In this document: piece by piece, positions 1 through 28,674 of the stretch
Layout of the letters: each line of letters starts with the position of its first letter
Numbering within the stretch: the stretch's first letter is position 1
Assembly (NCBI GenBank): GCA_964422035.1
Contig: CAYQZQ010000001.1
Span: 651,786 to 715,785 of the forward strand
DNA length: 64,000 bases
DNA from: an uncultured Pseudomonadales bacterium
Lineage (GTDB): Bacteria; Patescibacteriota; Microgenomatia; UBA1400; Chazhemtobacteraceae
Direction: 5' to 3'
The notes under the pieces: generated by a model
The model's input: the letters and a program-made list of their open reading frames with translations, nothing else
The model's database searches: none
What the model was told of the DNA's origin: nothing
Translations under genes and position numbers: made by a program

Positions 1-629
1 TGAGGGATGGGAAGATCAGAAGAGAAAGGGGTTTGCTGGCCTTGTTTTGAGGGTTGAGGAGAGGAGGAAGAAGGACTGGTTTGAGGAGAAGGGGGCTGTT
101 TTGGAGGTTCGGGTTGTTGTTTTTCTGGGGGAGTTGGTTCTGGGGCAGGAGTGGGAGGAGGGGTTTTAGGAGAGTGGCGTTTATTAGTTTTGGCTTTTGT
201 TTTCTTGGGAGCAGCCTTTTTTTGGGTGACTTGAAAGGAGGAAAGAGGAGGAGAGGTTGGTTGTGAGTCAGTTTTTTGTTTGGATTGATTTTTAGGTTTG
301 GAAGGGGCGGGAGAGGAGTCTTTGGGTTGCTGTGGTTGTTGTTTTTGCCAGGTGTAGATGGTGGGAGAGTAGATGGATTTGAAGAAAGCAATGATCCATT
401 GACTTAGGGGTCGACCTTGGACAGGAAGGAAGGCAAGGGCAGCGCCCAGGGAGGCGAAGAAAATTATAAGTGGCCATTTGAAAAGGGCAGGAATAGGAAG
501 GGAGAAGGCGATAACGGCAAGAATACCTCCAGCGGCCAGTTGAAGAAACTGCTTTAGAGTCATGTCGCCGATGAGGCGAAATTGATACTGTGTTACGTTT
601 TGAGGAATAGGATGCTGTTGGACGGGCAT
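1..629 (-). CDS. PrgI-family-like (VirB3-like) T4SS membrane protein, 5' part only (C-terminus beyond window start); N-terminus MPVQQHPIPQNVTQYQFRLIGDMTLKQFLQLAAGGILAVIAF... then Pro/Ser/Lys-rich tail
   Basis: Manual translation of the minus strand from ATG at 629 to position 1 has no stop. It is absent from the ORF track because no stop lies in the window. The N-terminal motif QY.F.LIG.MT.KQF plus two hydrophobic segments matches recalled PrgI-family proteins. The listed 54..266(+) and 292..477(-) ORFs are out-of-frame shadows of it. Confidence 0.5.
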   Translation of the reverse strand, partial: MPVQQHPIPQNVTQYQFRLIGDMTLKQFLQLAAGGILAVIAFSLPIPALFKWPLIIFFASLGAALAFLPVQGRPLSQWIIAFFKSIYSPTIYTWQKQQPQQPKDSSPAPSKPKNQSKQKTDSQPTSPPLSSFQVTQKKAAPKKTKAKTNKRHSPKTPPPTPAPEPTPPEKQQPEPPKQPPSPQTSPSSSSPQPSKQGQQTPFSSDLPIP

Positions 630-736: not shown

Positions 737-2965
737 ATGGCAGAAGGTGAACCAATTTCTGGGATCGGGCCAAGTAGTATAAGTCGTGGTCCTGGCCATA
801 AAATGGAGAAAATTTCTCAGCCAACCAGTCAGGCTGAAGTGCCTGATATTAGAATGCAAAGAGATGAAGAAGAGGAGGTTGTTAGTGGTCGGGAAAAGCT
901 TGACGAGGAAAGAGAGATGTGGGAAGAGTTTGAAGAGGGTTATGGGAATAGAAATGAGATGAGGATGCCGGTAGTAACAGTTGAATTGGAAAAACCTGCT
1001 GAGGAGTTTAGTGCAAAAAAGTTTAAAAGGGCAGTACAAAAGGAGTTTTCATCTTGGGTAGATGGCTTAATTGCTAAAACTGGATCGGGGATGTCTGACA
1101 GGCCGGATCATATTAGATTAGGAAGGATGATGGATAGTATGAAAAATGCAGTTGATAGTTTAGAGATAAGAAGAAGCTTGGCAGAAGAGGGAGAGAAGGA
1201 AGTAGTAAGAAAACAGGAAAGTTTTGAAGAGATAAAGAAGAGGTTAATGAAAGAAGAAAAATTTACAGAAGAAGATTTTGAAGAAATGGGGAGAGGAGAG
1301 ATATTAAAAGTAACAAGAGCGAAGAAAGAGATGAAAGAGATTGAGTTTGGTGATAAAGAAAAGGAAAAACTGGAAGCGATTGAGGAAGCCTTGGAGTGGT
1401 CGGGAGCTATGGATGAGTTTATGTGGGGAGTTTATACTCATTGGGGGAGTTTAGGATGGTCAAGAGAATACTGGGCCAATGTCATCATGAATAGAGACAA
1501 AAGAGTGGTTAGATTGAAAGAGTTGTCCAAAATCAGAGAGATAGGACCGGTTAAGGAGGGTGAAATGCCAGTTGAGGAGTATTGGGACAAGGCGCAAAGA
1601 ATGATTATTGCAACAGCTTTGGTATCGATGGAGGCTGGTGAATCGGAAAATGAGAATATCCAAAAAGATTATGAGGTGGTTCCAAAAGATGTGGTGAAGT
1701 TGATAGGAGATGTTTTGACTGAAGAAGTGTCAGATTACTCGATAGACGAAGATTCCGGTGAAGAATCTGTGAAAGCGACACGCACAGTATTGAATATATT
1801 AAATATTGATCCAAAAAGTGATTTATTTGGCAAGACAAGTAAATTTATAAAAGCTTGTAGCTGGGTTGATGCGTGGGGCAGACTGAAAGAAGGAGGTAAA
1901 TACGAAGAAGTTAAAAGCGAAGTTGGTGATTGGATGAGTAAGATGGAGAAGGCGGAGAAAAGCGGTGAAGTGTCTTTTGGTTTGGATTTTGCGTTTAAGT
2001 TAGCTTTGGCTGACATTCATTTTGCAGGAATTGATACTAAATATGGGTGGAGCATGAAAGAAGAGATGAAATTAAAGAAGGAAGAGGGTGGAGATTGGAA
2101 GGTAAAAATAGGTAAAGATTGGAAAAAAACTGGAGAAGTAAAAGAAGGAGAGCAATTGTTTAAGAAAAAATATGATATGGGAGGATGGCCACAAGGAAAT
2201 GATGCCAATTATTTGGTGTGGTCAGGAGCAAGATTGAAAGAGGATGGGGGTCGTGACTGGCCGATAGGGCCTAATGTTCTTATGAGTGAAGAGGATGTTG
2301 AAAGAGCGGATGATCCAAGGCTTGAGACTGTGTTTCCCAATGGAATGATTCCTAACTTTTATGAGAAAGTCAAGCTGATGGTGAAAGTGGGAGTAGAAAA
2401 TTTAGATGTAGAGGAGATGTCTGATCGAGTAAAATCTACACTGGAGAATATTGGGAACATTGGAGAAGAGAAAACTTTTTGGGAGTTGTGGTGGAGAGAA
2501 GAAAATAGACATTATCAATTACCTTGGACAGGAGAAAGTGAAAGAGAAATGAAGGTATTGAGGGTTCCAAGAGATAACGAGCATAGTAAATGGTATGTGA
2601 CCTTGTTAATGGCTAATAGAGTGTTTGAAGCAGCTATCAATGATGATGTTAGGGAATTTCAAGAGCTGGTGTCTGTTGATAAGATGAAAAAGTTGATTAA
2701 AAATGCTGATATTGCTTTTGGGGTTGGTTCTGATAAAGCAAAAAGAATGGTGGTGGGAGTTTTGGCAGCACAGTCTTTATTGTTTAGTGGTTTATCGGAC
2801 CAACTGATTAGTAAAGATCAGAGAGAACAGGCTGTTAAGATGAAGGCAAAAAGCGATATAGGAAATAAGATCAGGTACTTATTAGATGAGGGCAAGCGAA
2901 GAGGGAAGTGGAGTAGTTTATACAATCAAATTATTGAGGAGGGTAAGATTGTCTGGAGAGATTAA
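737..2965 (+). CDS. large acidic (Glu/Lys-rich) hypothetical protein, no TM segments
   Basis: Long uninterrupted ORF of 742 aa, divergent from the PrgI-like gene. No recognisable catalytic motif. Confidence 0.55.
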   Translation: MAEGEPISGIGPSSISRGPGHKMEKISQPTSQAEVPDIRMQRDEEEEVVSGREKLDEEREMWEEFEEGYGNRNEMRMPVVTVELEKPAEEFSAKKFKRAVQKEFSSWVDGLIAKTGSGMSDRPDHIRLGRMMDSMKNAVDSLEIRRSLAEEGEKEVVRKQESFEEIKKRLMKEEKFTEEDFEEMGRGEILKVTRAKKEMKEIEFGDKEKEKLEAIEEALEWSGAMDEFMWGVYTHWGSLGWSREYWANVIMNRDKRVVRLKELSKIREIGPVKEGEMPVEEYWDKAQRMIIATALVSMEAGESENENIQKDYEVVPKDVVKLIGDVLTEEVSDYSIDEDSGEESVKATRTVLNILNIDPKSDLFGKTSKFIKACSWVDAWGRLKEGGKYEEVKSEVGDWMSKMEKAEKSGEVSFGLDFAFKLALADIHFAGIDTKYGWSMKEEMKLKKEEGGDWKVKIGKDWKKTGEVKEGEQLFKKKYDMGGWPQGNDANYLVWSGARLKEDGGRDWPIGPNVLMSEEDVERADDPRLETVFPNGMIPNFYEKVKLMVKVGVENLDVEEMSDRVKSTLENIGNIGEEKTFWELWWREENRHYQLPWTGESEREMKVLRVPRDNEHSKWYVTLLMANRVFEAAINDDVREFQELVSVDKMKKLIKNADIAFGVGSDKAKRMVVGVLAAQSLLFSGLSDQLISKDQREQAVKMKAKSDIGNKIRYLLDEGKRRGKWSSLYNQIIEEGKIVWRD

Positions 2966-2986
2966 TTAAAGAGAGCGAGTTTTTGA

Positions 2987-4684
2987 TTATGTGTTTGGTC
3001 TATTTCGACCTGTGGTGTTATCAATAAATTCATTGACAGTTGAGATGTTGGTTTCTTGACTTTGTATTTTTTTACCCATTTGTTTTATAAATTCTGGGGC
3101 ATTTGGATTTCTCATAACTGTGCCTAGTGAAGTTATTCCACGTCGAGTCATATCAAAGCTTGTTCCCAGTTCTCTTCCTAAATCAGAACCATATTTAAAT
3201 GGCTCTACTTGGAAGGCTTCCTTGATCATATCTACATATTTGGGAGCCATAAAGAGAAGTCCAAGACCTACTAGTGCTACCATGCCACTGGCACCAGCGC
3301 CTTGGTAGGGGAAAAGTACGGGAACACGAGGTGCGGCTGAAGCTTGCAGAAGCCCCTGTGTAATGTTTTCGTACTTAAAATAAAGAGGTTGAACCATGAA
3401 AAGATAGGAAAATAAGAGGAGAAATGATGTGGCTGGAAAAACAATAAGATTGGCAAAAGTGTTTCTTAGCCAGTTGCCGACTGAGTTGGAACCGGGAAAA
3501 ACGTTGCCAAGAAGGATAAGTGGGGCAAAGATCAGATTAATAATGACGGTTATATAGGCACCTATTAGTTTAAAGAATAGTTTTCCATAGGAAATTAATG
3601 TAGCGATTAGGAGAATGGCTCCGACTATTATAGTTGGGATACCACCAACGAAAATTATAGATAAGGCGTTTGCTACGCCCCAAAAGATGCCTGTAATACC
3701 TGCTGGGAGGCCGGTAATGGCTCCGATTGCACCTGGAATACCAGATACGAAGGCAATAAATGTGTTGAAAAATCCACTTAAAATAAGACCAGCCCGACCA
3801 GAAGCAACATTGGCAAGAATATTTCCATATTCAGCGACCGGTCCAGTTTGAATTACATTGAAAGTTTCGAGGGCGCTAAAGCCGAGGAAGAAAAGAAGCC
3901 AGACTAAATCAAACATAAGCCCGATTATGGCGTAAGAAAAGGTGATCAAAAATAGAGTGAATATTAGTTTAGGTAAAGCCTGTTGAATGTTGACTGATGT
4001 TTGAGGATTTATCTTGACGCGGAACATGATCATAAAACCATAAACGAGGAAAAGAAGAACAAAGATCATATAGGCAATATTTCGAAAAGCGCGCCAAATT
4101 GGCAAAAAGCCTTGTAAGCTGGAAAAACCGTATCCACCACTATTGTCCTCTTGAGCATATGAAGGTTGAACAATTTTATGTTTTGCCATGTTGTCTTTAA
4201 CGCTGGCGACGTATTGATAAGTTTGGGCGGGGGGGTTTTTGAAAGGAGAAGATACTAATTGACCTAAGCTGGAAAGGAGGCTGTTATTGGAAGTGGATTG
4301 GTTAACTGCTTGATTGGTGATGTCGATTGTTGCTAGAAGACTCAGAGGCTGGTTTTGCCCTTGTTTTTTTTCATTGAATTTTTTGAATAATTCATCAAAA
4401 ATTGCTTCTCCGGTTTTTTCTTGTTCGCCGATCATAAATTCTAAGGCGTGGAGAATGATGATGTCTCCGAAACCGGTGCCTTCGCCTGTGAATGTGTTGT
4501 TGGTCCCACATTTACCGGCATACCAAGTTTCAAGGTTCATGGTGTCTCCTTGTCTTTTTTCACAGAAATCGTAGAGAGCGTCGTTTAAGGCTTCATTATT
4601 CTTTGCAGCAGCGACAGGATGGGGGAGAAAGGCTGAGGATATGAAAATTAGAGTGGTAAAAAAGATAATGAATTTTTTGCTCAT
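2987..4684 (-). CDS. polytopic membrane protein with signal peptide, ~200 aa exported domain and Gly-rich TM bundle; VirB6/TrbL-like candidate
   Basis: Signal peptide MSKKFIIFFTTLIFISSAFLPHPVAAA, then at least 6 hydrophobic helices rich in G/A/I. The architecture and the pilus-gene neighbourhood support the call. Confidence 0.45.
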   Translation of the reverse strand: MSKKFIIFFTTLIFISSAFLPHPVAAAKNNEALNDALYDFCEKRQGDTMNLETWYAGKCGTNNTFTGEGTGFGDIIILHALEFMIGEQEKTGEAIFDELFKKFNEKKQGQNQPLSLLATIDITNQAVNQSTSNNSLLSSLGQLVSSPFKNPPAQTYQYVASVKDNMAKHKIVQPSYAQEDNSGGYGFSSLQGFLPIWRAFRNIAYMIFVLLFLVYGFMIMFRVKINPQTSVNIQQALPKLIFTLFLITFSYAIIGLMFDLVWLLFFLGFSALETFNVIQTGPVAEYGNILANVASGRAGLILSGFFNTFIAFVSGIPGAIGAITGLPAGITGIFWGVANALSIIFVGGIPTIIVGAILLIATLISYGKLFFKLIGAYITVIINLIFAPLILLGNVFPGSNSVGNWLRNTFANLIVFPATSFLLLFSYLFMVQPLYFKYENITQGLLQASAAPRVPVLFPYQGAGASGMVALVGLGLLFMAPKYVDMIKEAFQVEPFKYGSDLGRELGTSFDMTRRGITSLGTVMRNPNAPEFIKQMGKKIQSQETNISTVNEFIDNTTGRNRPNT

Positions 4685-4731
4685 TGATTTGATTATATCA
4701 ACCTGAGTTAGTAATGGAAACTTGGATTTTG

Positions 4732-7113
4732 TTAATTGCCGATGTAATTTAAGTTTTGGTCGTAGTTGTTGTTAAACCAGATGCCGTATTCACAGTAGTT
4801 TTGGTTTCCCAGGCGAGCGTAGCTGACGCCTTCCTTGCAGGCGGCGCTGTTAAAGCTTGTGATGGCGGCTCGCATAACAGCGTCACTGTAAGGTTTTTTT
4901 TGGCTGACATTTAGAGAAACCATTTTGGCTACGGCATAGGCGGAGTCAACCATGGAGCAGATATTGGTTTCTTGTGAAGAGTTGTGGCATTCATTGTAGG
5001 CGTTGCCGTAGTTGGCACCTCCTGACCAGATGTCTAGATTTTCAGCTGCAGGATTGGGGCATTTATTGGGGAGGAAGCAGTAGGGGTGTTCTGGGTCTCT
5101 TTGGTTTCTTTGAGAGACGGTCTCGCCAATTGAGCCGTCTTTGTTATGTAGGAACTGGAAAGGCCCCCAGGAGCCGCAGCCGTCTCCGGATGGAGCGCAA
5201 TAAGCTTCTGTTTGGCGGTCAAAGTTGTTGGAATATAAGTCGCCCACCTCAACGGTGGAGATGGCGGCGATTACTTTGGGTGAGATGCCAAAGCAGGCGG
5301 CAGCTTGTTGGAAAAGTTGCTTGGCTTGAGAGCTGAACTGGACAGGGTTTTGATAGACGTCTGCCCGAACTGAGAAAGGGGAAGTGTTTTTATATTGCGA
5401 ACAGGATTGGGCGACACCTTGAGAGCTGATGCGGGCATAAGGATCAGAGCAGTCTAAGGTTGAGTCTTGTTGACCGGATGGAATAAGCCACTGATTGCGA
5501 AGCTGGCATAGATCAACATGGGACTGACCGGCTTGTCTGGGGACAGGAGAGGAGTTGTCATTGGTGTTGGTGGTGGTGATGACGACTTCATCTTCTGAAT
5601 CAAAGAAAGAGATAGGAGCTTCGATGCGGGTGTCTTTCTGAGATGAAGGTGTGAAGCTGGGAGTAAATATTTGATAAAGAGAGGAGGAGTTTTGATTAAG
5701 AGAAGAAAGAGAGGTGTTGATGTTTGATTGGGCGGGGTTGTTGGCGATGACGATTGGTTTTCCGGTGACGGTTGCAAGACCTTTAATCTTCCAAGTGGAA
5801 GAGGTTCGTATGGCAATTGGAGTTGTAAGGGGAGTGAGGGTAGGTTTGATGTATCGATAGGAAATATGACGGGTAATTTGGACGGGAACGATGACTGTCT
5901 GGGAGAAAGAAGGGGCGAGGGCTAGGTGTTGAGGGTTGGTTAGAGGAGAGGGAAGATAGATGGCGTCAATGATGTTGTCACATTGGTTTCTATCAAATTC
6001 ACCTGAAGTGATCTGTTCTTGTAGTTGGGTAAGAAAACTGGGAATGGATTGTTGTTCTTGGGATTGGTTGATGAAGCGATCATTTGTAAGAGAGCCTTCC
6101 CGTTGGTTGTTGATCCATTGAGGAGAGTAGAGGTTGACTAGACCGGTTTGGGGGTTAGTTAAACCTTCATCTAAGGCAGCTAGGTAGGGTAGATTTTCGC
6201 CATAGACGGAAGAGATAAAGGAAAAGCTTTGGCTTAGTTGAGCTAAGTAGCCGCGGTAGTTGTCAAAGGGTAAAGGTAAGAGAGCATCGTAGGCAGCCTT
6301 GGTGTCAGGTTTGAGGGTGTTGTAGGCTTTGGTGTAATTGCAAAATCTTATCTCGATGTGTTTTTTGAAGAAGGGAATATTAAAGTCAATAGAGGGGTCA
6401 ACAACTAATAAACAACGAGATTGATTGGCTAGTTCTATGGCTAAACGTTTTATGTCTTTGGTTTGTTGATTGCCGTCTTTGTCAAAGTATTGGATTTGGT
6501 AGTTTTGATAGATCTCTTCTTCTCCACCAGGAAGTAAAGTTCTTATATCAGGATAGTCTTCGTTCTGGCGGATAAAGGCGGCTTTGGCTTTGGCTTGTTG
6601 CTGGAAGGTGGTAGTGCGCCAGTAGGTGCGATAGGCTTCTTTAGGGAGAGGTGAGTCGGTGGCAGGATAGTAGGTGTTGGGCTGGTCAAAAAGAGCTTGA
6701 AAAGGGTATATTTGGGCATTGCGGTCAGGAGAGGATTGATGAATGATTTGAGCGTTGGCTCCAAAACCACCTAGTTGGGCGCGGTCCATATTAGCGTAGA
6801 TTTCAGTGGTCAATTCACCGTTAGTTTGGTACTTGGTGCAATTGCCGTATTGGTCGGTTTCTACACAAGGCAGAGATGAGTAGGAGAGATTTAGGGGTTC
6901 TTTGTCACTTTCAAAGTTAACATTGACTTTGGGGCTGGAGGTACAGGTTAACTGATAATCATCGAGGTCTTGATGGATAAGATCGGTTTCGGTTTCGCAG
7001 TCTTCGGTGGGGCGGTAGGGATTTTGTCCGGCAGGACAAGGGGCAGCCAGAGTAGGAGAAGATAAAAGAAGGGTAAAAAAAAGTAGGGGTAGAATTTTAA
7101 GCAAACGCTTCAT
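4732..7113 (-). CDS. large secreted protein; C-terminal region lytic-transglycosylase-like (VirB1-like?)
   Basis: The likely start is the internal MKRLLKILPLLFFTLLLSSPTLAAP signal peptide at 7113, not 7338. The C-terminus carries AISTVE...GPFQF...GNAYNEC, resembling the SLT motifs ES / GLMQ / AYNAG. Confidence 0.45.
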   Translation of the reverse strand: MKRLLKILPLLFFTLLLSSPTLAAPCPAGQNPYRPTEDCETETDLIHQDLDDYQLTCTSSPKVNVNFESDKEPLNLSYSSLPCVETDQYGNCTKYQTNGELTTEIYANMDRAQLGGFGANAQIIHQSSPDRNAQIYPFQALFDQPNTYYPATDSPLPKEAYRTYWRTTTFQQQAKAKAAFIRQNEDYPDIRTLLPGGEEEIYQNYQIQYFDKDGNQQTKDIKRLAIELANQSRCLLVVDPSIDFNIPFFKKHIEIRFCNYTKAYNTLKPDTKAAYDALLPLPFDNYRGYLAQLSQSFSFISSVYGENLPYLAALDEGLTNPQTGLVNLYSPQWINNQREGSLTNDRFINQSQEQQSIPSFLTQLQEQITSGEFDRNQCDNIIDAIYLPSPLTNPQHLALAPSFSQTVIVPVQITRHISYRYIKPTLTPLTTPIAIRTSSTWKIKGLATVTGKPIVIANNPAQSNINTSLSSLNQNSSSLYQIFTPSFTPSSQKDTRIEAPISFFDSEDEVVITTTNTNDNSSPVPRQAGQSHVDLCQLRNQWLIPSGQQDSTLDCSDPYARISSQGVAQSCSQYKNTSPFSVRADVYQNPVQFSSQAKQLFQQAAACFGISPKVIAAISTVEVGDLYSNNFDRQTEAYCAPSGDGCGSWGPFQFLHNKDGSIGETVSQRNQRDPEHPYCFLPNKCPNPAAENLDIWSGGANYGNAYNECHNSSQETNICSMVDSAYAVAKMVSLNVSQKKPYSDAVMRAAITSFNSAACKEGVSYARLGNQNYCEYGIWFNNNYDQNLNYIGN

Positions 7114-7138
7114 GAGGATATTGTAGCAATAAGAAGGG

Positions 7139-7492
7139 TTATGGAGTGAGATTGATCTGGGTGACGGGAGCACCAGTGAACTGTTCGATAAGATAAAGGA
7201 CAAACCAAGCGAGAGCAAGACCGGCGATACCGATGATGGCGTAGGTGAGAGCTTTGTAAGCGCCTTGAACTTGTTTGGGGTCGTCGCCGGCCATGATAAG
7301 TCTGGCTCCGGCGAAGAGGATAACACCAAAGGCGACAAGAATGAGTAGGGGAGAAAGAATGCTGATGATGTTTAGAAGAACGCACTTGATGCCGGTGATG
7401 GTGGGAATGATTTCTCCGTCGACTTGTTGAGCGCATCCTTGATTAACCCACTGGTTGGCTTCAATTTTAGCGGCGTGTGCGGTTAGATTCAT
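7139..7492 (-). CDS. VirB2/TrbC-like pilin paralog 1 (two TM segments flanking a GDDPKQVQGAYKAL loop)
   Basis: About 110 aa, hydrophobic-loop-hydrophobic layout. The loop motif is related to paralogs 2-7. Confidence 0.6.
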   Translation of the reverse strand: MNLTAHAAKIEANQWVNQGCAQQVDGEIIPTITGIKCVLLNIISILSPLLILVAFGVILFAGARLIMAGDDPKQVQGAYKALTYAIIGIAGLALAWFVLYLIEQFTGAPVTQINLTP

Positions 7493-7515
7493 ATGTGTAA
7501 TTATAAACTAATAAC

Positions 7516-7550
7516 AAAAACCCTCTGGAGTAGAGGGTTTTTGCTTTATT
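7516..7550. terminator. bidirectional rho-independent terminator hairpin (AAAAACCCTCT-GGAGTA-AGAGGGTTTTT) flanked by T/A runs
   Basis: Perfect inverted repeat followed by a T-run on the plus strand and an A-run upstream. It lies between pilin paralogs 1 and 2. Confidence 0.6.
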
Positions 7551-7566
7551 TTTTGCTTTATGATGC

Positions 7567-7896
7567 TTATTTTAGGGAAGGAAGAGAAAGCTCGGAGATT
7601 GATTGACCGAAGAGGAAGGTGGTGATTAGGTTAATCAAAGCGTAAGCAGCAGCGATGACGATTAACCCAATGACTGCATTGGTAATTTTCTTTTGTGCTT
7701 CTTCAGTTTTGGCTTTATCGCCACCTGAAGTAATCCATTGAAAACCGCCCAGGATTAAAAAGATGAAAGCAGCTAGAGCACCGAGAACAATAGAGGCGTT
7801 AACCAAACCTTGAAGTAAGGTTCCGATATTGCTAATGGCGTAACTTGGTTCGGGGACTCCGACTGATTCGGCAAATGCTTTTTTGATTATTTGCAT
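7567..7896 (-). CDS. VirB2/TrbC-like pilin paralog 2
   Basis: Contains QWITSGGDKAKTEEAQKKITNAVIGLIVI between two hydrophobic helices. Confidence 0.65.
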   Translation of the reverse strand: MQIIKKAFAESVGVPEPSYAISNIGTLLQGLVNASIVLGALAAFIFLILGGFQWITSGGDKAKTEEAQKKITNAVIGLIVIAAAYALINLITTFLFGQSISELSLPSLK

Positions 7897-7957
7897 GTTG
7901 ATGTGTATTTAGTAATTGTTAATGAAATTATACTTAGCTTAAAAGATAACTGTCAAA

Positions 7958-8272
7958 TTAAGAAGTAGGTAGGGCTTGGTCTAGACCTAAGAAGTTTTTG
8001 ATAAGAACAAAAACTGCGTAAGAGGCGACGACGATGATAAGACCGGTTAAACCATTGGTAATTTGCTTTTGAGCTTGTTCAACTTTAGCTTTGTCTCCAC
8101 CTGAGGTAATCCACTGAAGGCCGCCTAAGATAAAGTAAATGAGGGCAGCCAGAGCGGCGATGATGATAAGGGCATTGATTAGGCTGCTGATTAGAGTACC
8201 TACGTCTTGAAAGGCGAAAAAGCCTTGAGTTTGGGTTTTAAGATTTGATTGCATATTAGAAGTTCCAGTCAA
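7958..8272 (-). CDS. VirB2/TrbC-like pilin paralog 3
   Basis: Contains LQWITSGGDKAKVEQAQKQITNGLTGLII. Confidence 0.65.
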   Translation of the reverse strand: MTGTSNMQSNLKTQTQGFFAFQDVGTLISSLINALIIIAALAALIYFILGGLQWITSGGDKAKVEQAQKQITNGLTGLIIVVASYAVFVLIKNFLGLDQALPTS

Positions 8273-8591
8273 TATTTAGTAAATCAATTTTTAAGAATTC
8301 ACTGATAAGGCTGACAATGGCAAAGGAGGCGACTAGAATGATAAGGCCGGTTAAAGCATTGGTAATTTGCTTTTGAGCTTGTTCAACTTTAGCCTTGTCT
8401 CCACCTGAAGTAATCCACTGGAGACCTCCTATAATAAAGTAGATTAGAAAGGCTAGGCCGCCGACGATGACTAGCGCTTTCCAGATTTGACCAATATAAA
8501 AGGCAAGGCCGGCTCCGGCCTGTGAGGGGGTAGTGAATTGGTTAAGGACAGGGTTTTTGATGGCGGCGTGTGTTTGGGGTACTATTTTCAT
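8256..8591 (-). CDS. VirB2/TrbC-like pilin paralog 4
   Basis: Contains LQWITSGGDKAKVEQAQKQITNALTGLII. Overlaps paralog 3 by 17 nt. Confidence 0.65.
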   Translation of the reverse strand: MKIVPQTHAAIKNPVLNQFTTPSQAGAGLAFYIGQIWKALVIVGGLAFLIYFIIGGLQWITSGGDKAKVEQAQKQITNALTGLIILVASFAIVSLISEFLKIDLLNIDWNF

Positions 8592-8941
8592 GAAAGGTCC
8601 AGTAATTTTAATGGTTCAAGGAGTTGAATGTCGAGAATGTTGCCGATGATGGCGATGGCAAAGTAGGCTACAAGGACGATGACAAGGCCGGTTAAACCAT
8701 TGGTAATCTGCTTTTGAGCTTGTTCAACTTTAGCTTTGTCTCCACCTGAGGTGATCCATTGAAGAGCTCCGATGAGGAAGTAGAGGATGAAGGCGAGTCC
8801 GGCGGTGACGGTAAGGAAACCTATTACTGTTGAAAATAAATTTTCAAAAAGGGCTGGGTCTTGAGGATCTTGCATGTATTTGCCGGGGCCGGTGATGTTA
8901 CCCAGGTCAATCTGGGCGTAGGCTTGGGGTATTATTTTCAT
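8588..8941 (-). CDS. VirB2/TrbC-like pilin paralog 5
   Basis: Contains LQWITSGGDKAKVEQAQKQITNGLTGLVI. ATGA overlap with paralog 4. Confidence 0.65.
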   Translation of the reverse strand: MKIIPQAYAQIDLGNITGPGKYMQDPQDPALFENLFSTVIGFLTVTAGLAFILYFLIGALQWITSGGDKAKVEQAQKQITNGLTGLVIVLVAYFAIAIIGNILDIQLLEPLKLLDLS

Positions 8942-8943
8942 GA

Positions 8944-9297
8944 TTAGTTAACGGTTTGTAATTGAGGGCTTAGGATGTAGGTGTAGCTGCCGAAAAGAAG
9001 TTTGCTGATTATGGCGGTGACGATAAAGACAGCTACCATGACAAGTAAACCAATGAGAGCATTGGTGATTTGTTGTTGGGCGGAGCGGACTTTGTCCTGA
9101 TCGCCAGCGGCGGTGATGATAGAGAAACCTCCTAAAAGCATTTGGATTAAAGCAAAGAGACCGGCGGCTACAAAGATAACTCTAATTAAAGTTGAGAGAA
9201 AGCTGCCAAGGTCGCTGGTTTCAGTAACGACTGAAGGAGGAGGGGTGAGTTTGCCGACAACATCTTTGGCATAAGTTTTTGAGATTAGACTTAACAT
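8944..9297 (-). CDS. VirB2/TrbC-like pilin paralog 6 (divergent loop AAGDQDKVRSAQQQITNALIGL)
   Basis: Same two-TM architecture. Confidence 0.6.
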   Translation of the reverse strand: MLSLISKTYAKDVVGKLTPPPSVVTETSDLGSFLSTLIRVIFVAAGLFALIQMLLGGFSIITAAGDQDKVRSAQQQITNALIGLLVMVAVFIVTAIISKLLFGSYTYILSPQLQTVN

Positions 9298-9298
9298 A

Positions 9299-9634
9299 TT
9301 AAAAGATTGGCAAACCGCCGACGTTAAATAATATTCGAGTTATCCAGAAAGCGATAACTGCCAGGGCTAGCCCTAGTAAGGAAAATAGTAACATATTAGA
9401 AGCTTTTTGTGTTTCTTTGGGGTTGCCCCCAGCGATTATGTAACGGAAACCGGCTATAAGAGAGGAGATGAAAGCAGCAAGACCGGCTACAATGGTGATG
9501 TTTTGAATAATGGGGCTTAAGATACTGGAAAAAGTTGGGTTACTACCTAAAGATTTGCTGGGAGTAAAGGCGTCACCTAGATCAGTGGCAGCGTAAACTA
9601 GCGGTGCGGTCAAAAGTTTGCCTGTGAGTTTCAT
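9299..9634 (-). CDS. VirB2/TrbC-like pilin paralog 7 (loop AGGNPKETQKASNML)
   Basis: Same two-TM architecture. It is the first gene of the minus-strand array. Confidence 0.6.
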   Translation of the reverse strand: MKLTGKLLTAPLVYAATDLGDAFTPSKSLGSNPTFSSILSPIIQNITIVAGLAAFISSLIAGFRYIIAGGNPKETQKASNMLLFSLLGLALAVIAFWITRILFNVGGLPIF

Positions 9635-9670
9635 GTAAACAAATTATAACAGGTAGGTATAATAAAGGCC

Positions 9671-10741
9671 ATGAAGGCTATAAATAAGCTACAGAATTTT
9701 AAGATAAGGTTTGACAAGATCTTGCAAGAAGAGATCTTGGAGTGGAGGAGAGAGGCGGTGAGGTTAGATGAGCGGTGGGAGCTATTTATGAAAGTACTGG
9801 AAGAGTTTGTAGTTAGGGGCGGGAAAAGGATAAGGCCGGCGTTTTTATACTATTCATATTTGGCTTGTGGAGGAGAAGAGGCGGAGAAAGCAATGAGAGC
9901 AGGGGTAAGTCTGGAGCTTTTGCATGCGTTTTTGTTGATTCACGATGATATGATAGATAATTCTGATTTAAGACGAGGGGGTCCGACTGTTCACAAGGTT
10001 TTTGAGGAGGAGCACAAGAAAATGTCTTTGGAAGGAAATAGTGAGGAGTTTGGTAGATCAACGGCAATGATTTTAGGAGACGTGGTGCAGATGCTAGCAA
10101 GAAAACAGTTGCGCAAGGTGGACTTGAGGGAAGATATGTATAGAGAAAGCGAGAAAATAATGGAAGATCTTTTATGGGAGACGGCGTATGGTTGGTATAT
10201 TGAGATGTTGAATGCAAAAACCAGAGTGATTGAAGAGAAAGATGTTAAAAGATCGATGGAGTATGTTTCAGCTAGATATACAGTGTCAGGGCCGGTGAAG
10301 ATGGGAGCGATGTTGGCAGAAGCTGAAGTAGGAAAAATTAAGGCACTGGAGGAGTATGGACTGAATTTGGGTTTGGCTTTTCAGATTCAGGATGATGTTT
10401 TGGGGATGTTTGGAGATGAAGCAAAGGTGGGCAAGCCGGTGGAAAGTGATTTGAAAGAGGGAAAAAAGACGCTTTTGATTTTAAGAACACTTGACAAGCT
10501 TGAAGATGAAGAAACTAAGAATAAGCTGATGAGTATATATGGAAACAGTGAGGCAACAAGGCAGGATTTGGTTTGGGTGAGAGATTTAATAAAGAGTGAA
10601 GGTGTTTTGGAGGAGGTAAAAGGGGAGGCAAGAGGGTTGGCTGAGAAAGCGAAAAAGGAGTTAAAAAGCTTAGATTGGGATGAGAAAGGAGAGGGGTTTC
10701 TATTGGGTATAGCTTCATATATAGTAGAAAGACAAGTATGA
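9671..10741 (+). CDS. trans-isoprenyl diphosphate (polyprenyl) synthase
   Basis: FARM motif LIHDDMIDNSDLRRG and SARM motif FQIQDDVLG...GK. Confidence 0.85.
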   Translation: MKAINKLQNFKIRFDKILQEEILEWRREAVRLDERWELFMKVLEEFVVRGGKRIRPAFLYYSYLACGGEEAEKAMRAGVSLELLHAFLLIHDDMIDNSDLRRGGPTVHKVFEEEHKKMSLEGNSEEFGRSTAMILGDVVQMLARKQLRKVDLREDMYRESEKIMEDLLWETAYGWYIEMLNAKTRVIEEKDVKRSMEYVSARYTVSGPVKMGAMLAEAEVGKIKALEEYGLNLGLAFQIQDDVLGMFGDEAKVGKPVESDLKEGKKTLLILRTLDKLEDEETKNKLMSIYGNSEATRQDLVWVRDLIKSEGVLEEVKGEARGLAEKAKKELKSLDWDEKGEGFLLGIASYIVERQV

Positions 10742-11247
10742 GAAAAGTTCAAGTAGTAAATAACCAAGGGGAGACGATTGGAGAAGAGGAGAAGCTGGCA
10801 GCACACAAGAAGGGTTTATTGCACAGAGCGTTTTCAGTCTTTGTTTTTAATAGTGATGGAGAGTTGATGTTACAACAAAGAGCCAGTGGTAAATATCACT
10901 CAGGAGGTTTGTGGAGTAATACATGTTGCTCTCATCCGGAGCCGGGAGAAGAAGTGTTGGAGGCGGCGCATAGGAGAATTCAAGAAGAGATGGGGTTTGA
11001 TTGTGAGATGGAAGAGAAGTTTACATTTCAATACAGAGTGGAGTTTGAGAATGGGTTAGTGGAAAATGAGTATGATCATGTGATTTTTGGAGAGTATGAT
11101 GGAGAACCTGATCCTAGTGAAGAAGAGGCAGATGATTGGAAGTGGGAGAGTTTGGAAAAAATTAGAGAGGAAGTGGAGGAGAAACCAGAGAAGTTTAGTT
11201 TTTGGTTTAAGGGTTTGTTATCTGAGGTTATTGAAAAGAGAAGTTAA
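10738..11247 (+). CDS. idi: isopentenyl-diphosphate delta-isomerase, type 1 (Nudix)
   Basis: LHRAFSVFVFN...WSNTCCSHP...GE...ENEYDHV matches recalled E. coli Idi active-site regions. Confidence 0.85.
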   Translation: MRKVQVVNNQGETIGEEEKLAAHKKGLLHRAFSVFVFNSDGELMLQQRASGKYHSGGLWSNTCCSHPEPGEEVLEAAHRRIQEEMGFDCEMEEKFTFQYRVEFENGLVENEYDHVIFGEYDGEPDPSEEEADDWKWESLEKIREEVEEKPEKFSFWFKGLLSEVIEKRS

Positions 11248-11963
11248 GAGGTTTTGTTTTTTGAGTCTCCTCCAAAACGGCGATCGCGTGAAGTGTAGCT
11301 TTGGAGAGCTTTGTTGAATTGGTTGGTGTCAAAGTCAGGGAAGAGAGTATCGGTAAAGTAGAGCTCTGAATAAACTGCTTGCCAGGGCAAGAAGCCGGAA
11401 AGGCGAACTTCACCTCCGGTGCGGATGATTAGGTCAGGGTCAGGCAGGTCAGCAGTATCAAGCATGGAGGAGAAAAGCTCTTCGGTGACTTCTTTGGCCT
11501 GGTAACCTTTTTTGATGATTTTTTTGACAGCTCGAAGTATTTCGTCACGGCCGCCGTAGTTTAGAGCAAAGGAAACAGTAATTTGATCATTGTCTTTGGA
11601 TTTTTGAATCAGTTTTTGAACTTTTTGGGCGATGTCTTGAGGGAAGCGGTCTACTTGACCAAGAACATTTAGTCTAGCACCTTTTTTAATGAATCTATCA
11701 GCTAAAGTTTTTAAGCCCTTGCGGAAGATTGAGAAAAGAGCCTGAATTTCATCCTTGTCTCTTTTCCAGTTTTCGGTTGAGAAAGCCCAGAAGGTGACGT
11801 AGGGGATATTAAGTTGGGCACAGCGCTCAATGATGGGTTCGATTACATTCATGGCAGCGTGGTCGTGACCTTCGACGGGTTCTTTGTCTTGGTTTTTAGC
11901 CCAGCGACGATTGCCGTCCATGATGATAGCAACGTGTTGAGGGGTTTTTAGGCTTTTTTCCAT
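11244..11963 (-). CDS. uppS: undecaprenyl-diphosphate synthase (cis-prenyltransferase)
   Basis: HVAIIMDGNRRWA motif, plus RTGGEVRLSGFLPWQ near the C-terminus. Confidence 0.85.
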   Translation of the reverse strand: MEKSLKTPQHVAIIMDGNRRWAKNQDKEPVEGHDHAAMNVIEPIIERCAQLNIPYVTFWAFSTENWKRDKDEIQALFSIFRKGLKTLADRFIKKGARLNVLGQVDRFPQDIAQKVQKLIQKSKDNDQITVSFALNYGGRDEILRAVKKIIKKGYQAKEVTEELFSSMLDTADLPDPDLIIRTGGEVRLSGFLPWQAVYSELYFTDTLFPDFDTNQFNKALQSYTSRDRRFGGDSKNKTS

Positions 11964-12023
11964 AGAACTGATTATAACAATTATGTGTTTGCGTTAATTA
12001 TGCGTTAATTATGCGGGAATTAT

Positions 12024-12353
12024 TTAAAATGGAAGAATTGAAGAATCGTAGTTTAGCATAGAAGTGATAATTTTAACAATTAAAAATGAGGCTAAGACAA
12101 TAACAAGTCCGATAAAACCATTTAGGAGGCGGGTGTTGGTTTTGCTGAGAGACTCCGGGTCATCGCCGCCGAATATGTAGCCAAAAGAAGTGATGATTAG
12201 ATTAATAAAGAAGATAAAAGCGATGATGAAGAAAGCAACATCTAAAAGGTTGAAGCCGCCGGAGGTGATTAATTGGGTAATAGTGGGGTTGTTGGAGGAG
12301 AACTTAGTAGCGGGGTTGTAGAGGTTTGATATGTCTACTTGAGCTAGTTGCAT
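12024..12353 (-). CDS. VirB2/TrbC-like pilin paralog 8 (loop GGDDPESLSKTNTRLLNGFIGL)
   Basis: Two TM segments plus a GGDDP loop, as in paralog 1. Confidence 0.55.
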   Translation of the reverse strand: MQLAQVDISNLYNPATKFSSNNPTITQLITSGGFNLLDVAFFIIAFIFFINLIITSFGYIFGGDDPESLSKTNTRLLNGFIGLVIVLASFLIVKIITSMLNYDSSILPF

Positions 12354-12357
12354 GGGT

Positions 12358-12903
12358 CTATTGTAAACCAGGTAGGCCTAGAATGTTAATACCGATTATA
12401 TTCATGAGTATAGTGGAGAAGATTATGAAAATGAGTCCGGCGATGGCGGAGGTGATAACCTCTTTGCCGGCGTTGACTTTGTCAGGAATGCCGCCGGAAG
12501 TGGTGATTAAAAATAAACCATAGACAATAAGAATTAAAGCGATGGCCCCACCGATGCCGATACCTAAGGTGAGAATGTTTTTGATAAAACCGTCTCCTTG
12601 TAGATTGGTGGGAATGCAGCCTAAGGCTGTGTTGATTCCTTGGTTACCATTACACTGAAGATTGTTGACATCAGAAGATCCTTTAAGGTTTTTGTTTTTT
12701 TGGTCTCTGGTGTTTTCGCAAGCTTCGAGTGAGGAGTAGACGGAGTCGCCGCTGTTGAGATTGGTTTCTTGGCAACTGCAGCCGTAACTAGTACAGTGAA
12801 GAATGTAGTTTTGGGAGCTCTGGGCTTTGGCAGGTAAAGAAGTGAGGAGAGAGAAGGATAGAAGAGCGGTAAAGATAATAATAATTTTAGTTTTCATAAG
12901 CAA
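12358..12903 (-). CDS. pilin-like protein with N-terminal Cys-rich secreted domain (paralog 9)
   Basis: Classic signal peptide, an ~90 aa domain with 8 Cys, then the TM-ITTSGGIPDKVNAGKEVITSAIAGL-TM module. Confidence 0.55.
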   Translation of the reverse strand: MLMKTKIIIIFTALLSFSLLTSLPAKAQSSQNYILHCTSYGCSCQETNLNSGDSVYSSLEACENTRDQKNKNLKGSSDVNNLQCNGNQGINTALGCIPTNLQGDGFIKNILTLGIGIGGAIALILIVYGLFLITTSGGIPDKVNAGKEVITSAIAGLIFIIFSTILMNIIGINILGLPGLQ

Positions 12904-12942
12904 TGGTTAAATTTTACCAGAGAAGTAGGTACAATATAAACC

Positions 12943-14727
12943 ATGAGGAAATATGTAAAGATTGGATTGTTGATAACAGTGATAGTAGGAGGGGTGGTAG
13001 TATTTGCGACTAATAATAGAATTAGAGCTGAGGAAAACTGTGAACAGTTTAAGGAAAACAGTGGAAATTATTATGAGTGTTTGGGAAAAGAGATTAGTGA
13101 TTTAGAAGAGAAGCTACAACTTTCTAAGGCAGCTACTGCTCCTTTGGAAGCAGAGATGAATAAATTAGAAAGCAGGATTGATTCGATTCAAGCTCAGATT
13201 AGGGCGGCAGAAACAAGGAGAGAAAAACTGGTGGAAGAGATAGAGGAAAGAGAAGATAATTTGGCGGTTCAGTATGTTTTGTTGCGTCAGAAGTTGCGAG
13301 AGTATTACAAAAGAATGAGATCTTCCTCAAGTATGGTGTTTTTATTATCAGAAGTTGGTTCAGGAGAGGTGAGTAGAGATTTAGGATATAGAGAAGTGGC
13401 AACAAAACAAGATAGGAAGTTAATTTTGTCGATCTCAGATGAAATTGTAGGGTTAGAAGAGGATAAAAAGCAGGTGGAGGAAAGTAAAAAGGAGTTGGCA
13501 GTGCTACAAAGTCGGCTGGATGAGCAAAAGGAATTTTTTGAAGGGGAGATAGCAGGAGCGAAGGCTTATCAGACAGATTTGGAGGGGCAAATTGCAGAAC
13601 TGACTTCGAAGCAGCAGCAGTTGTTAGCGGAAAAGTATGGAAGTTTAAATTTGCCAGAAAGTTTAGGGGCGGGAACGTTGTATTGTACAGATGATAGAAA
13701 TCTAAATCCGGGCTTTTCACCAGCTTTTGCTTTTTACACTTATGGAATTCCTCATAGGGTGGGGATGAGTCAATATGGGGCTTACGGGAGAGCTAGTTCA
13801 GGACAGAGTTATACACAGATTTTAGAAGCTTATTTTAGTGCGTCTCTTGAATGTAAAGATATGCCAAGTGAGATTTTGGTAGAAGGATATGGTGTTCGTA
13901 GTATGGATGATTATGTTAAGGGAGTGGTGAATAAAGAGATGGGAGCTGATTTAGTTGAAGCACTGAAAGCTCAGGCAGTGGCAGCTCGTTCTTATGCTTT
14001 GGCTTATACTAATAATGCTCAAAAATCGATTTGTGCAACTCAGAGTTGTCAGGTTTATTCTGATGCAAGAAGAGGGGTGGTTGACGGTGCAGTGGATGCG
14101 ACAGGTAAGAATGTGTGTGGAGATGGGCGGGCACAAGTTTTAACTTCTAATGGGCAGCCAGTGACTGCGTGGTATGCATCAACGGCAGGTGGTTATACGT
14201 TTTTTAATTCTGATGTGTGGGGTGGGTCAAGAAGACCTTGGACAAAGCGGGTGGTAGATGCTTCTGGTTCGGTGGGTAGTTTTAGTGATTTGCATAATAA
14301 AGCGTATGATAAAGATTCATCTTGTTTTTATGCAGCTCAAGGCTGGAGAAGTCAATATGATAATTCGGCTTGGCTTAAAAGTGAGGAGGTGGCAGATATT
14401 GTGAATGTGTTGATGCTGGCTAATAAGGATAGTTCAACGCAGGTGCACTTGCCACAGGTGGATAAGCCAAATCCGGATGGTAAAGAGACTTGGGATGCAG
14501 AAAGAGTAAAGTCAGAGTTAAGGTCCAAGGATGGCAATCCTTATAATTCTGTGTCTTCGGTTTCGGTGAGTGTTGATTTTGGTACAGGAAGAGTTACGAG
14601 CGTGACAGTGTCAGGAGATACAGGAACTAAGTCTTTTGATGGGAGTCGTTTTATAGATTACTTTAATTTGAGAGCGCCAGCTAATATTCAGATAGTGGGA
14701 CCGTTGTTTAATGTGGAAACTAAGTGA
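12943..14727 (+). CDS. SpoIID/LytB-domain protein with N-terminal coiled-coil
   Basis: GIPHRVGMSQYGAYGRA motif (SpoIID GVGMSQYGA). The N-terminus is heptad-rich. Confidence 0.7.
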   Translation: MRKYVKIGLLITVIVGGVVVFATNNRIRAEENCEQFKENSGNYYECLGKEISDLEEKLQLSKAATAPLEAEMNKLESRIDSIQAQIRAAETRREKLVEEIEEREDNLAVQYVLLRQKLREYYKRMRSSSSMVFLLSEVGSGEVSRDLGYREVATKQDRKLILSISDEIVGLEEDKKQVEESKKELAVLQSRLDEQKEFFEGEIAGAKAYQTDLEGQIAELTSKQQQLLAEKYGSLNLPESLGAGTLYCTDDRNLNPGFSPAFAFYTYGIPHRVGMSQYGAYGRASSGQSYTQILEAYFSASLECKDMPSEILVEGYGVRSMDDYVKGVVNKEMGADLVEALKAQAVAARSYALAYTNNAQKSICATQSCQVYSDARRGVVDGAVDATGKNVCGDGRAQVLTSNGQPVTAWYASTAGGYTFFNSDVWGGSRRPWTKRVVDASGSVGSFSDLHNKAYDKDSSCFYAAQGWRSQYDNSAWLKSEEVADIVNVLMLANKDSSTQVHLPQVDKPNPDGKETWDAERVKSELRSKDGNPYNSVSSVSVSVDFGTGRVTSVTVSGDTGTKSFDGSRFIDYFNLRAPANIQIVGPLFNVETK

Positions 14728-17585: not shown

Positions 17586-18026
17586 ATGACAGTTGTAAAT
17601 AGAAAAGCCAAGTATGAGTATGAAATTTTGGAAACCTGGGAAGCAGGGATAGTTTTGGATGGTTGGGAAGTGAAAAGTGCTAAAAAAGATCAGGTGTCTT
17701 TGTCTGGCTCAAGGGTGACGGTTCGAGATGGAGAGCTTTATGTAGTTGGAATGCAGATTAATCCGTATCAAAAACAGGTTGAAGAGCAAAAACCAGACAG
17801 GTCTAGAAAGCTTCTTTTATCAAAAAAAGAGATTGATAGTATTGTGGGTAATCTGAGTCGAAAAGGATTGACCGTGGTGCCTTTAAAGTGCTATAATAAG
17901 GGTGGATTGGTGAAGTTAGAGATAGGGTTGGTAAGGCGAAAAAAAGAATGGGAGAAGAGAAGGAAGATAAGGAAAAGAGAAGCAGAGAGAAAGGTCAAAA
18001 ACTTATTAAAAGTACATAAAAAGTGA
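17586..18026 (+). CDS. smpB: SsrA-binding protein
   Basis: KAKYEYEILETWEAGIVLDGWEVKS matches SmpB. The tmRNA lies immediately downstream. Confidence 0.85.
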   Translation: MTVVNRKAKYEYEILETWEAGIVLDGWEVKSAKKDQVSLSGSRVTVRDGELYVVGMQINPYQKQVEEQKPDRSRKLLLSKKEIDSIVGNLSRKGLTVVPLKCYNKGGLVKLEIGLVRRKKEWEKRRKIRKREAERKVKNLLKVHKK

Positions 18027-28561: not shown

Positions 28562-28674
28562 ACTTAAATTATACTAAAAATATGACTTAAACGATAGTTT
28601 GGATAGTTTCCTGTAGGGGAGCAGTATTAACTAACTTTACTGAAGGTCTTTTTGTAATATCTATTTAGTGGATT

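Follow-up and report, generated by a model that had tools for sequence, protein, structure and literature searches.

Seven differentiated VirB2-like paralogs in fixed order in a probable type IV secretion locus of a Microgenomates-type Patescibacterium

Introduction

Patescibacteria carry tandem series of small pilin-like genes in association with type IV secretion systems (T4SSs). Here we describe such a series in a 64,000-nucleotide (nt) stretch of contig CAYQZQ010000001.1 (positions 651,786–715,785 of its forward strand, assembly GCA_964422035.1; hereafter the window), in which seven genes for pilin-like proteins with two transmembrane segments (2-TM) follow one another on the minus strand at 7139–9634 and two further relatives lie upstream. 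The known arrays were surveyed with the models PF04956 and PF18895 in 3,035 genomes of Patescibacteria by Quinonero-Coronel et al. 2025 (PMC12102498). The authors report 441 arrays of 2–11 genes in 383 assemblies, with Microgenomatia especially rich in them, and suggest antigenic or host-range versatility as their role; they also describe VirB6 homologues as "scarce" in Microgenomatia, "suggesting extreme sequence divergence". In S. epibionticum ML1, the pilin series of the T4SS cluster is essential (Wang et al. 2023, PMC10633639). A 2025 review considers these six divergent pilins remarkable for a monoderm and treats a pilus as a mere possibility (PMC12857230). Cryo-electron tomography revealed a tube that joins a Saccharimonadia cell to its host and measures 8.6 nm in width and 61 nm in length (PMC11880426). 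The essential Patescibacterial T4SS has a puzzling series of pilin-like genes; monoderm T4SSs are not known to make a pilus. A width of 8.6 nm is about that of conjugative pili.

The array in the window closely resembles the published ones: it is tandem, chromosomal and probably T4SS-linked, consists of PF18895 proteins and comes from the array-rich Microgenomatia. Divergence within the array is likewise strong, with pairwise identities of 19–56% and a mean of about 32% among the seven proteins, compared with a mean of 25% and a maximum of 54% in the published survey (PMC12102498). The locus is thus no new kind of element. Its value lies in the positional orthology of the genes, a candidate major subunit at the sixth position that is apparently expressed separately, a candidate for the VirB6 of Microgenomatia and three states of the N-terminal leader, all of which go unmentioned in the passages of that survey drawn on here. 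These results can guide the choice of a gene to tag, deplete or purify.

More distant systems share some of these features. The VirB2/TrbC proteins of diderms (A. tumefaciens VirB2, RP4 TrbC) are similar in size and also have two hydrophobic helices, a short positive loop and a conserved Trp after helix 1; they align with the window proteins weakly but collinearly, and VirB3- and VirB6-type genes, the latter by fold only in the window, are found nearby in both cases. Unlike these systems, the window proteins miss the PF04956 cut-off and give no significant profile–profile comparison, the host is a monoderm, the leader comprises 7–15 residues or is lacking, and seven to nine paralogs stand in place of one gene. 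The Mbov_0395/MMCAP2_0565 family (NF045849) of mycoplasma integrative and conjugative elements belongs to a monoderm conjugation system and matches eight of the nine window proteins, although all of them score below 40 bits; this relationship agrees with the proposal that the Patescibacterial T4SS is of MPF-FATA ancestry. The pilin-like genes of the mycoplasma elements are not known to occur in more than one copy. Finally, the arrays of Bartonella and Anaplasma phagocytophilum also comprise several tandem virB2-like genes beside a T4SS. They are read as lineage-specific amplification for antigenic variation (cited in PMC12102498), whereas the positions described below are orthologous across distant genomes.

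Results

Nine intact genes of the T4SS_pilin family

The seven genes of the array lie at the coordinates given in a preceding reading made from the letters alone (the sequence-only reading). They are all intact, with no frameshift and no internal stop in any of them. We number the array positions in order of transcription, so that position 1 has the highest coordinates and position 7 the lowest (Table 1). An alignment bore out the proposed layout of a short N-terminal segment, a TM segment, a charged loop and a second TM segment. Consistently, an AlphaFold2 (AF2) model of position 3 is a helical hairpin formed by residues 29–64 and 69–102, with a predicted local distance difference test score (pLDDT) of 83–90 in the helices, and exactly two hydrophobic segments were found in 469 of 569 open reading frames (ORFs) of the family.

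The genes are tightly packed. Junctions 1/2, 2/3 and 4/5 are gaps of 1–2 nt, and positions 3 and 4 overlap by 4 nt (ATGA at 8588–8591). Of the small overlaps between genes that had been proposed, this is the only certain one; a second holds only if position 5 starts at the TTG at 8272, and the ATG at 8254 is the more likely start, the database entry P0007 likewise having 98 aa. A TATAAT hexamer ends just 7–8 nt before the ATG of positions 1 and 7 (9635–9660 and 7493–7512, respectively, minus strand), and an obvious Shine-Dalgarno sequence was seen at no array gene. Together, these two observations suggest leaderless mRNAs or mRNAs with a very short leader.

All nine window proteins matched the Pfam family PF18895 (T4SS_pilin), with E-values from 3.5e-11 to 4e-5, confirming the count of nine family members in the window. 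Six of the nine reached the gathering score of 26.6 bits, namely five array proteins (27.5–43.5 bits) and the product of the first gene of the upstream pair (29.5 bits). The remaining two array proteins scored 24.2–24.5 bits (E about 3e-5), position 1 lying slightly under the cut-off with 24.2 bits (E 3.6e-5), and the second gene of the pair gave 24.0 bits (E 4e-5). The divergent position 7 matched with E 3.8e-9. Supporting this assignment, all 148 array members that we collected from other genomes matched the same model with E 0.01 or better, and the matches exceed chance by far. The NCBIfam model NF045849 was matched over nearly all of its 80 positions by eight of the nine proteins (E 2.8e-9 to 3e-3; position 1, E 7e-5; second gene of the pair, E 1.9e-8). 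None of the nine reached its equivalog cut-off of 40 bits, the best score being 36.5 bits at position 6, indicating that the window proteins are relatives and not members of that family. An unrelated family of small membrane proteins, which had been named as the outcome that would speak against a pilin identity, did not emerge; the proteins fall in T4SS_pilin and very probably belong to the known VirB2-like arrays of Patescibacteria.

Array positions are orthologous between genomes

To place the array among its relatives, one genome per species was scanned for the motif QWITSGGD, which gave 205 relatives, and 80 loci were kept. The window proteins were combined with their homologues into a hidden Markov model, with which the six-frame ORFs of these loci were searched. 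All kept loci come from metagenome-assembled genomes (MAGs) of Microgenomates type (Woese-, Gottesman-, Chisholm-, Collier-, Levy- and Pacebacteria). Many of these MAGs (L006–L082) are titled "uncultured Pseudomonadales" or "Gammaproteobacteria", which looks like mislabelling at deposition. Nearly every locus contains a same-strand run of pilin-like ORFs, most commonly of six or seven genes, and many have a separate pair a few kb upstream, one gene large and the other of about 105 aa, as at 12024–12903. The pair is joined to the array in some loci, resulting in runs of 8–10 genes. Homologues of the first and the second gene of the pair were found in 38 and 25 loci, respectively. Seven genes plus two are therefore the standard complement of this clade, and the view that the copy number is unusually high is not borne out.

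We then compared seven-gene arrays position by position. There are 28 such loci including the window, of which L001 and L002 hold the same array, leaving 27 independent ones. For most positions, the best match in another genome was the gene at the same position (Table 1). The window genes behaved in the same way: position 2 found its own position in 27 of 27 arrays, position 3 in 26, position 4 in 23 and position 7 in 27. Positions 2, 3, 4, 6 and 7 of the window thus map cleanly, position 5 is divided between 5 and 6, and position 1 of the window is too divergent for placement and shows the weakest positional orthology of the seven. Identity in the TM helices was 0.49 and 0.53 between genes of the same position in different genomes, against 0.31 and 0.37 between different positions within a genome. 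These results indicate that the paralogs are older than the radiation of the lineages concerned and that their order has been kept since. The array therefore consists of seven old and differentiated VirB2-like 2-TM paralogs in fixed order within a T4SS locus. Being ancient and position-specific, the paralogs are probably non-redundant parts of one structure. Such a pattern argues for differentiated subunits, and not for recent amplification, copy-number flux or antigenic variation. Paralogs under antigenic variation would be closest to one another within a genome; here, the best matches cross genomes at the same position. Of the options that the sequence-only reading had raised for the high number of paralogs, mixed pilus fibres are the one favoured by our data, whereas antigenic or copy-number variation is not.

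Table 1 Features of the pilin array and its T4SS neighbourhood in the window. Array positions are numbered in order of transcription; the last column gives best matches between genomes that fall on the same array position.
Feature	Coordinates	Strand	Length (aa)	Characteristics	Same-position best matches
Position 1 (first transcribed), pilin-like 2-TM	9299–9634	-	111	leader MKLTGKLLTAPLVYA	88%
Position 2, pilin-like	8944–9297	-	117	leader MLSLISKTYA	100%
Position 3, pilin-like	8588–8941	-	117	leader MKIIPQAYA	99%
Position 4, pilin-like	8256–8591	-	111	leader MKIVPQTHA	79%
Position 5, pilin-like	7958–8254 (ATG); to 8272 if TTG	-	98 (104 with TTG)	no leader motif	41%, otherwise mostly position 6
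Position 6, pilin-like, proposed major subunit	7567–7896	-	109	leader MQIIKKAFA	97%
Position 7, divergent pilin-like	7139–7492	-	117	loop AGDDPKQ; leader MNLTAHA	95%
First gene of upstream pair, pilin domain	12358–12903	-	181	true Sec signal peptide; Cys-rich N-terminal domain	
Second gene of upstream pair, pilin-like	12024–12353	-	109		
87-nt putative conversion tract, position 3	8681–8767	-		nucleotide identity	
87-nt putative conversion tract, position 4	8340–8426	-		nucleotide identity	
87-nt putative conversion tract, position 5	8036–8122	-		nucleotide identity	
Sigma-70 consensus match, TTGACA-18 nt-TATAAT	7927–7956	-		12/12; in 61-nt gap upstream of position 6	
Bidirectional intrinsic terminator hairpin	7513–7545	.		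13–14 bp stem, T runs; between positions 6 and 7	
Secreted protein, fast-evolving	4732–7113	-	793 (from MKRLLK)	Sec signal peptide; directly downstream of array	
Polytopic membrane protein, VirB6/DotA-like by fold, proposed assembly platform	2987–4684	-	565		
PrgI family (VirB3-like) T4SS gene, 3' part off window start	3–629	-		PF12666, E 1.6e-7, 32.2 bits (cut-off 27)	

A shared loop points to local gene conversion

Positions 3, 4 and 5 have exactly the same loop between the two TM segments, QWITSGGDKAKVEQAQKQITN; that of position 6 departs from it by three substitutions, and those of positions 1, 2 and 7 are divergent, in line with the earlier observation of a nearly invariant loop in four of the paralogs. 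In other genomes, the loops of positions 3, 4 and 5 are position-specific (for example, NWITAGGDKGKIDKAKGMMTN, NWIMAGGDKGKIEEARGKITQ and QWIMSGGDKGKLEEARAKITN), and the loop that is most constant across genomes is that of position 6. At the nucleotide level, a tract of 87 nt coding for the loop is 90–93% identical among positions 3–5 of the window, compared with 43–59% in the flanking TM-coding parts. Recent duplication as the source of the invariant loop was rejected, as identity falls to the latter values right outside the tract. The shared loop of positions 3–5 would instead have arisen by local gene conversion in this lineage. A metagenomic sequence, P0003, on a 634-bp contig of the European Nucleotide Archive, combines the N-terminal half of position 4 with the C-terminal half of position 5, joined exactly at the tract, and intact position-5 orthologues (P0004, P0005) are present in related samples. 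P0003 is either a true recombinant deletion variant or an assembly chimera formed through the 87-nt repeat.

The tract and P0003 bear on two other explanations of the array. A recent tandem amplification under relaxed constraint, with copy number varying between strains, would account for an identical loop tract in three adjacent genes and for a possible hybrid on a short contig. However, these three genes have little in common outside the tract, each gene has its own orthologue elsewhere, the size of the array is stable and positional orthology contradicts such an origin, which makes this explanation scarcely credible. Alternatively, the genes could encode alternative pilins, deployed singly or in changing mixtures for host range or evasion of host defence, as has been proposed for Bartonella and Anaplasma and suggested for Patescibacteria (PMC12102498). 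The external N- and C-terminal tails do differ strongly between the paralogs while the loop is conserved, and the identical tract could serve recombination, of which the hybrid-like P0003 (positions 4/5) might be a product. Against this, the positions are orthologous across several candidate phyla with a stable array order and number, and orthologues are still 38–52% identical; positions 1–5 are coupled translationally (2–4 nt), without internal promoters or invertible elements; and all copies are intact, the array of S. epibionticum being essential (PMC10633639). We consider alternating pilins quite improbable.

Position 6 is a candidate major subunit

One position stands out among the seven. 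Position 6 is the most conserved between genomes (identity 0.52 versus 0.38–0.43 at the other positions), and it gave the highest scores in the window with both PF18895 (43.5 bits) and NF045849 (E 2.8e-9). It is preceded by a gap of 61 nt and followed by one of 74 nt. The former contains a complete match to the sigma-70 consensus, the sole 12/12 match within 2800–13000; the latter holds the bidirectional terminator that had been noted earlier next to the gene at the low-coordinate end of the array, and this hairpin is the strongest in 10 kb.

The same arrangement recurs in related loci. Across the 27 arrays, positions 2–5 trail the preceding gene by 2–4 nt, whereas position 6 does so by a median of 62 nt. 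In 52% of these arrays, position 6 is preceded by a promoter match of 10/12 or better, compared with 4–7% elsewhere, and a hairpin with a T-run follows position 6 in 37%, compared with 0–4% at the other positions. Its own promoter-like site, its terminator and its conservation lead us to propose position 6 as a unit that is expressed strongly and apart from the other genes, likely encoding the major subunit.

Short leaders resemble the cleavage region of Sec signal peptides

Six of the seven array proteins start with a short leader that ends in x-(Y/H/F)-A (LVYA, KTYA, QAYA, QTHA, KAFA and TAHA); position 5 has no leader. The tripeptide x-(Y/H)-A, previously pointed out in four of the paralogs, is present in these, and its variants in MQIIKKAFA (position 6) and MNLTAHA (position 7) extend it to two more. 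With just 7–15 residues, the six leaders are unlike the long signal peptide of the VirB2/TrbC kind, which is not present in them, and among the nine proteins a full signal peptide is confined to the product of the first gene of the upstream pair. A Sec signal peptide masked by a wrongly chosen start was rejected for positions 2–5, where the upstream stop lies 1–2 nt before the start or overlaps it.

Orthologues at one and the same position come in three interchangeable leader states, and the sequence downstream of the leader is homologous in all of them. The first is a complete Sec signal peptide with an A-x-A type site at its end, as in MKKFAPLASLAGLAAAITPAFA|VDG (position 6). The second is a leader of 5–15 residues that ends in hydrophobic-x-A, as in MSKLLA|D, MKQVFA|Q and MFNLISTVKA|AP. 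In the third state the leader is missing, as in MASTFGTIKNPL (position 2). The motif occurs within residues 4–19 in 167 of the 469 family ORFs with two hydrophobic segments, compared with 74 ± 8 in shuffled N-terminal tails, the motif definition having been set after the data were seen. Since orthologues at the same position carry a full Sec peptide ending in the same type of site, the motif appears to be the cleavage (c-) region of a signal-peptidase-I type site, for which the hydrophobic core seems dispensable, and the short leaders would be cleaved there. The motif had been likened to the cleavage and cyclisation sites of the VirB2/TrbC type and not to a Sec signal peptide. It is indeed real and enriched, and the leaders are too short for Sec; however, the orthologues show a Sec-type c-region and no distinct cyclisation site.

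The array lies in a probable T4SS neighbourhood

Genes downstream of the array speak for a T4SS context. At the very start of the window lies a PrgI family gene, that is, a VirB3-like T4SS component, which is syntenic with the PrgI-like gene of L003; in that locus, the order is array, large protein, VirB6-like gene, a large ORF on the opposite strand and the PrgI-like gene. Together with the VirB6/DotA-like gene described next, it provides the T4SS context of the array.

The 565-aa polytopic membrane protein had no match to Pfam or NCBIfam, including the VirB6/TrbL models. Its family comprises at least 498 "hypothetical" proteins, and in 56 of 82 loci the array is followed on the same strand by a homologue, often within 100–400 nt. 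Its AF2 model has a mean pLDDT of 74. In a Foldseek search with this model, chains of the R388 TrwJ/VirB5-TrwI/VirB6 stalk took ranks 1–4, 7, 8 and 16 (best probability 0.98, E 0.06) and DotA took rank 5; these structural scores are marginal, and two programs gave a VirB6/DotA-like fold. An hhalign comparison of the family with five annotated VirB6 proteins gave only E 0.26, over 25 columns at a P...W motif that is invariant in both families. Compared with VirB6 (R388 TrwI) and DotA, the protein thus lacks significant sequence similarity and is about twice as long as VirB6. Fold and position make this family a candidate for the missing VirB6 of Microgenomatia.

Between this gene and the array lies the gene for the 793-aa secreted protein, for which Pfam gave no match, NCBIfam no usable one, and only 10 homologues were found. 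It contains a very weak MltB-like stretch (E 0.09), and a large ORF occupies the same interval between array and VirB6-like gene in 25 loci. As a guess, the protein might act as a tip, an adhesin or a wall-remodelling factor.

Several other genes accompany the locus. A 742-aa ORF very rich in E and K (737–2965, plus strand) separates the VirB6-like gene from the PrgI gene and runs opposite to both; at the matching place, L003 has an unrelated 716-aa ORF, likewise on the opposite strand. Pfam and NCBIfam searches with the 742-aa ORF and with a neighbouring 614-aa ORF gave no usable family match. The interval between the upstream pair and the array (9671–11963) holds ORFs resembling a polyprenyl synthase, a Nudix protein and an undecaprenyl-diphosphate synthase, identities that come from reading the sequence and from the syntenic genes of L001, which are labelled Prenyltransf and NUDIX; this isoprenoid-gene neighbourhood recurs in 36–44 of 82 loci. 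Divergent from the upstream pair, a gene at 12943–14727 (plus strand) encodes a protein that combines a SpoIID domain with a long N-terminal coiled-coil part, and this gene, a bPH_2 protein and the 614-aa ORF are kept beside the pair in 25 loci.

A proposed heteromeric filament or conduit and its alternatives

Taken as a whole, the locus is probably best explained as the pilin module of a chromosomal MPF-FATA-related T4SS of a Microgenomates-type Patescibacterium. We further propose, tentatively, a heteromeric assembly with position 6 as its major subunit, a model that is plausible without being favoured outright. According to this model, the proteins would insert into the membrane so that both termini face outward and the conserved positive GGDKxK loop faces the cytoplasm, and their short N-terminal leaders would be cut off at the A-x-A type site. 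The VirB6-like platform would then pull subunits from the membrane and stack them into one heteromeric filament or conduit. Position 6, with its own strong promoter and terminator, would supply the bulk subunit, whereas the coupled positions 1–5, position 7 and the upstream pair may provide initiator, tip or adaptor subunits of low abundance, comparable to major and minor pilins; the loop-coding 87 nt of positions 3–5 would have been homogenised in this lineage by gene conversion. The operons for major and minor pilins of type IV pili and type II secretion offer a functional analogy, in that one abundant subunit is combined with co-transcribed, conserved and non-redundant paralogs, one of which has a large extra domain; unlike these shared traits, the fold, leader type and assembly machinery are unrelated.

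The most specific version of this model, in which the seven plus two genes form a fixed heteromeric conduit of position 6 as bulk and eight minor subunits on a divergent 565-aa platform of VirB6/DotA type, with coreless leaders of 5–15 residues being cleaved, is doubtful in its entirety. If true, it would describe the first multi-pilin pilus of conjugative type, which might also be the tube seen to join Patescibacteria to their hosts.

Several results weigh against a pilus made of VirB2-like subunits. The test with PF04956 (TrbC/VirB2) failed, the best window scores being 17.9 and 15.8 bits against a gathering score of 27.9, so that the link to VirB2 is weak. A PDB sequence search with the pilin profile gave chance membrane matches only, with no VirB2, TraA or TrbC among them. 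With hhalign, two pilin alignments compared with eight annotated plasmid VirB2/TrbC proteins gave E 0.1 to 0.23, which is not significant; the value of 0.1 came from alphaproteobacterial VirB2, over a collinear alignment of 58 columns. A Foldseek search of the PDB with the pilin model returned nothing below E 1; the conjugation pilus subunit of A. pernix (8dfu) ranked 10th with E 3.2, no better than unrelated hairpins. A helical hairpin is not discriminating, and the fold fits ATP synthase subunit c as well as the archaeal conjugation pilus. Moreover, VirB4, VirD4 and TrsD were absent among the window ORFs scanned (at least 300 aa, except 51574–52542 and 58064–59008), the locus leaving the window at its start. 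The promoter and terminator of position 6 are consensus matches and not expression data, and the loci were picked through the QWITSGGD motif, so that their statistics hold for this clade only. No filament of these proteins has been observed so far in any Patescibacterium, and the review cited above only raises the possibility (PMC12857230).

These results could also be accommodated if the genes encoded non-pilin 2-TM subunits of a membrane ring, a channel lining or a translocon accessory that acts together with the VirB6-like and PrgI proteins and forms no fibre. Monoderm MPF-FATA systems lack a pilus (PMC12857230, PMC12102498), the fold search fails to separate the hairpin from ring subunits such as ATP synthase subunit c, homology to VirB2 was not statistically demonstrable in our tests, and conservation peaks in the loop and not in the exposed tails. 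Against such a role, some family members do match TrbC and CagC: among the 148 array members of other genomes, seven matched PF04956 at E 0.01 or lower (best E 4.5e-6) and one matched CagC, in a scan in which an unrelated TM family was matched by nine, which sets the noise level. Curators of two libraries have named relatives pilin or pilin-like, one member has a large Cys-rich extracellular domain that suits surface exposure, and a tube-like conduit 8.6 nm across, which such proteins might form, was seen connecting a Saccharimonadia cell with its host (PMC11880426). We regard a non-pilin role as unlikely. Of the proposed VirB2/TrbC-like pilin identity, membership in the T4SS_pilin family and the T4SS context thus stand, whereas the direct PF04956 test does not support it; placement in the VirB2 superfamily is probable, but was not demonstrated by the direct tests.

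The remainder of the window

The rest of the window is ordinary chromosome, with genes for DnaG, RpoD, SmpB, transfer-messenger RNA (tmRNA), tRNAs and MurB. It shows extreme strand asymmetry, the plus strand having a GC skew of 0.37 over 1–64000. At third codon positions, the skew is +0.6 to +0.85 on the plus strand for genes of either orientation, indicating a strand bias and not a coding bias. Amino-acid usage is shifted as well, plus-strand genes being rich in E, K, G, R and W and minus-strand genes in P, T, Q, S and L. The closest loci also show this skew (L003, 0.34; L004, 0.28), the median of 82 loci being 0.09. Two blocks break the pattern, 27690–38003 and 46023–47912, with third-position skews of about -0.2 to +0.37 and a lower GC content of 0.35–0.39; they were probably acquired or inverted recently. 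The former encodes an ABC transporter, MacB/FtsX, an HlyD-like protein and a histidine kinase, and the latter is a 629-aa ORF for which Pfam gave no match. A LAGLIDADG-like domain (E 3.8e-5) was found in an ORF at 19588–20502 (plus strand) that is situated between tRNA genes, close to the genes for tmRNA (18318–18715) and SmpB (17586–18026).

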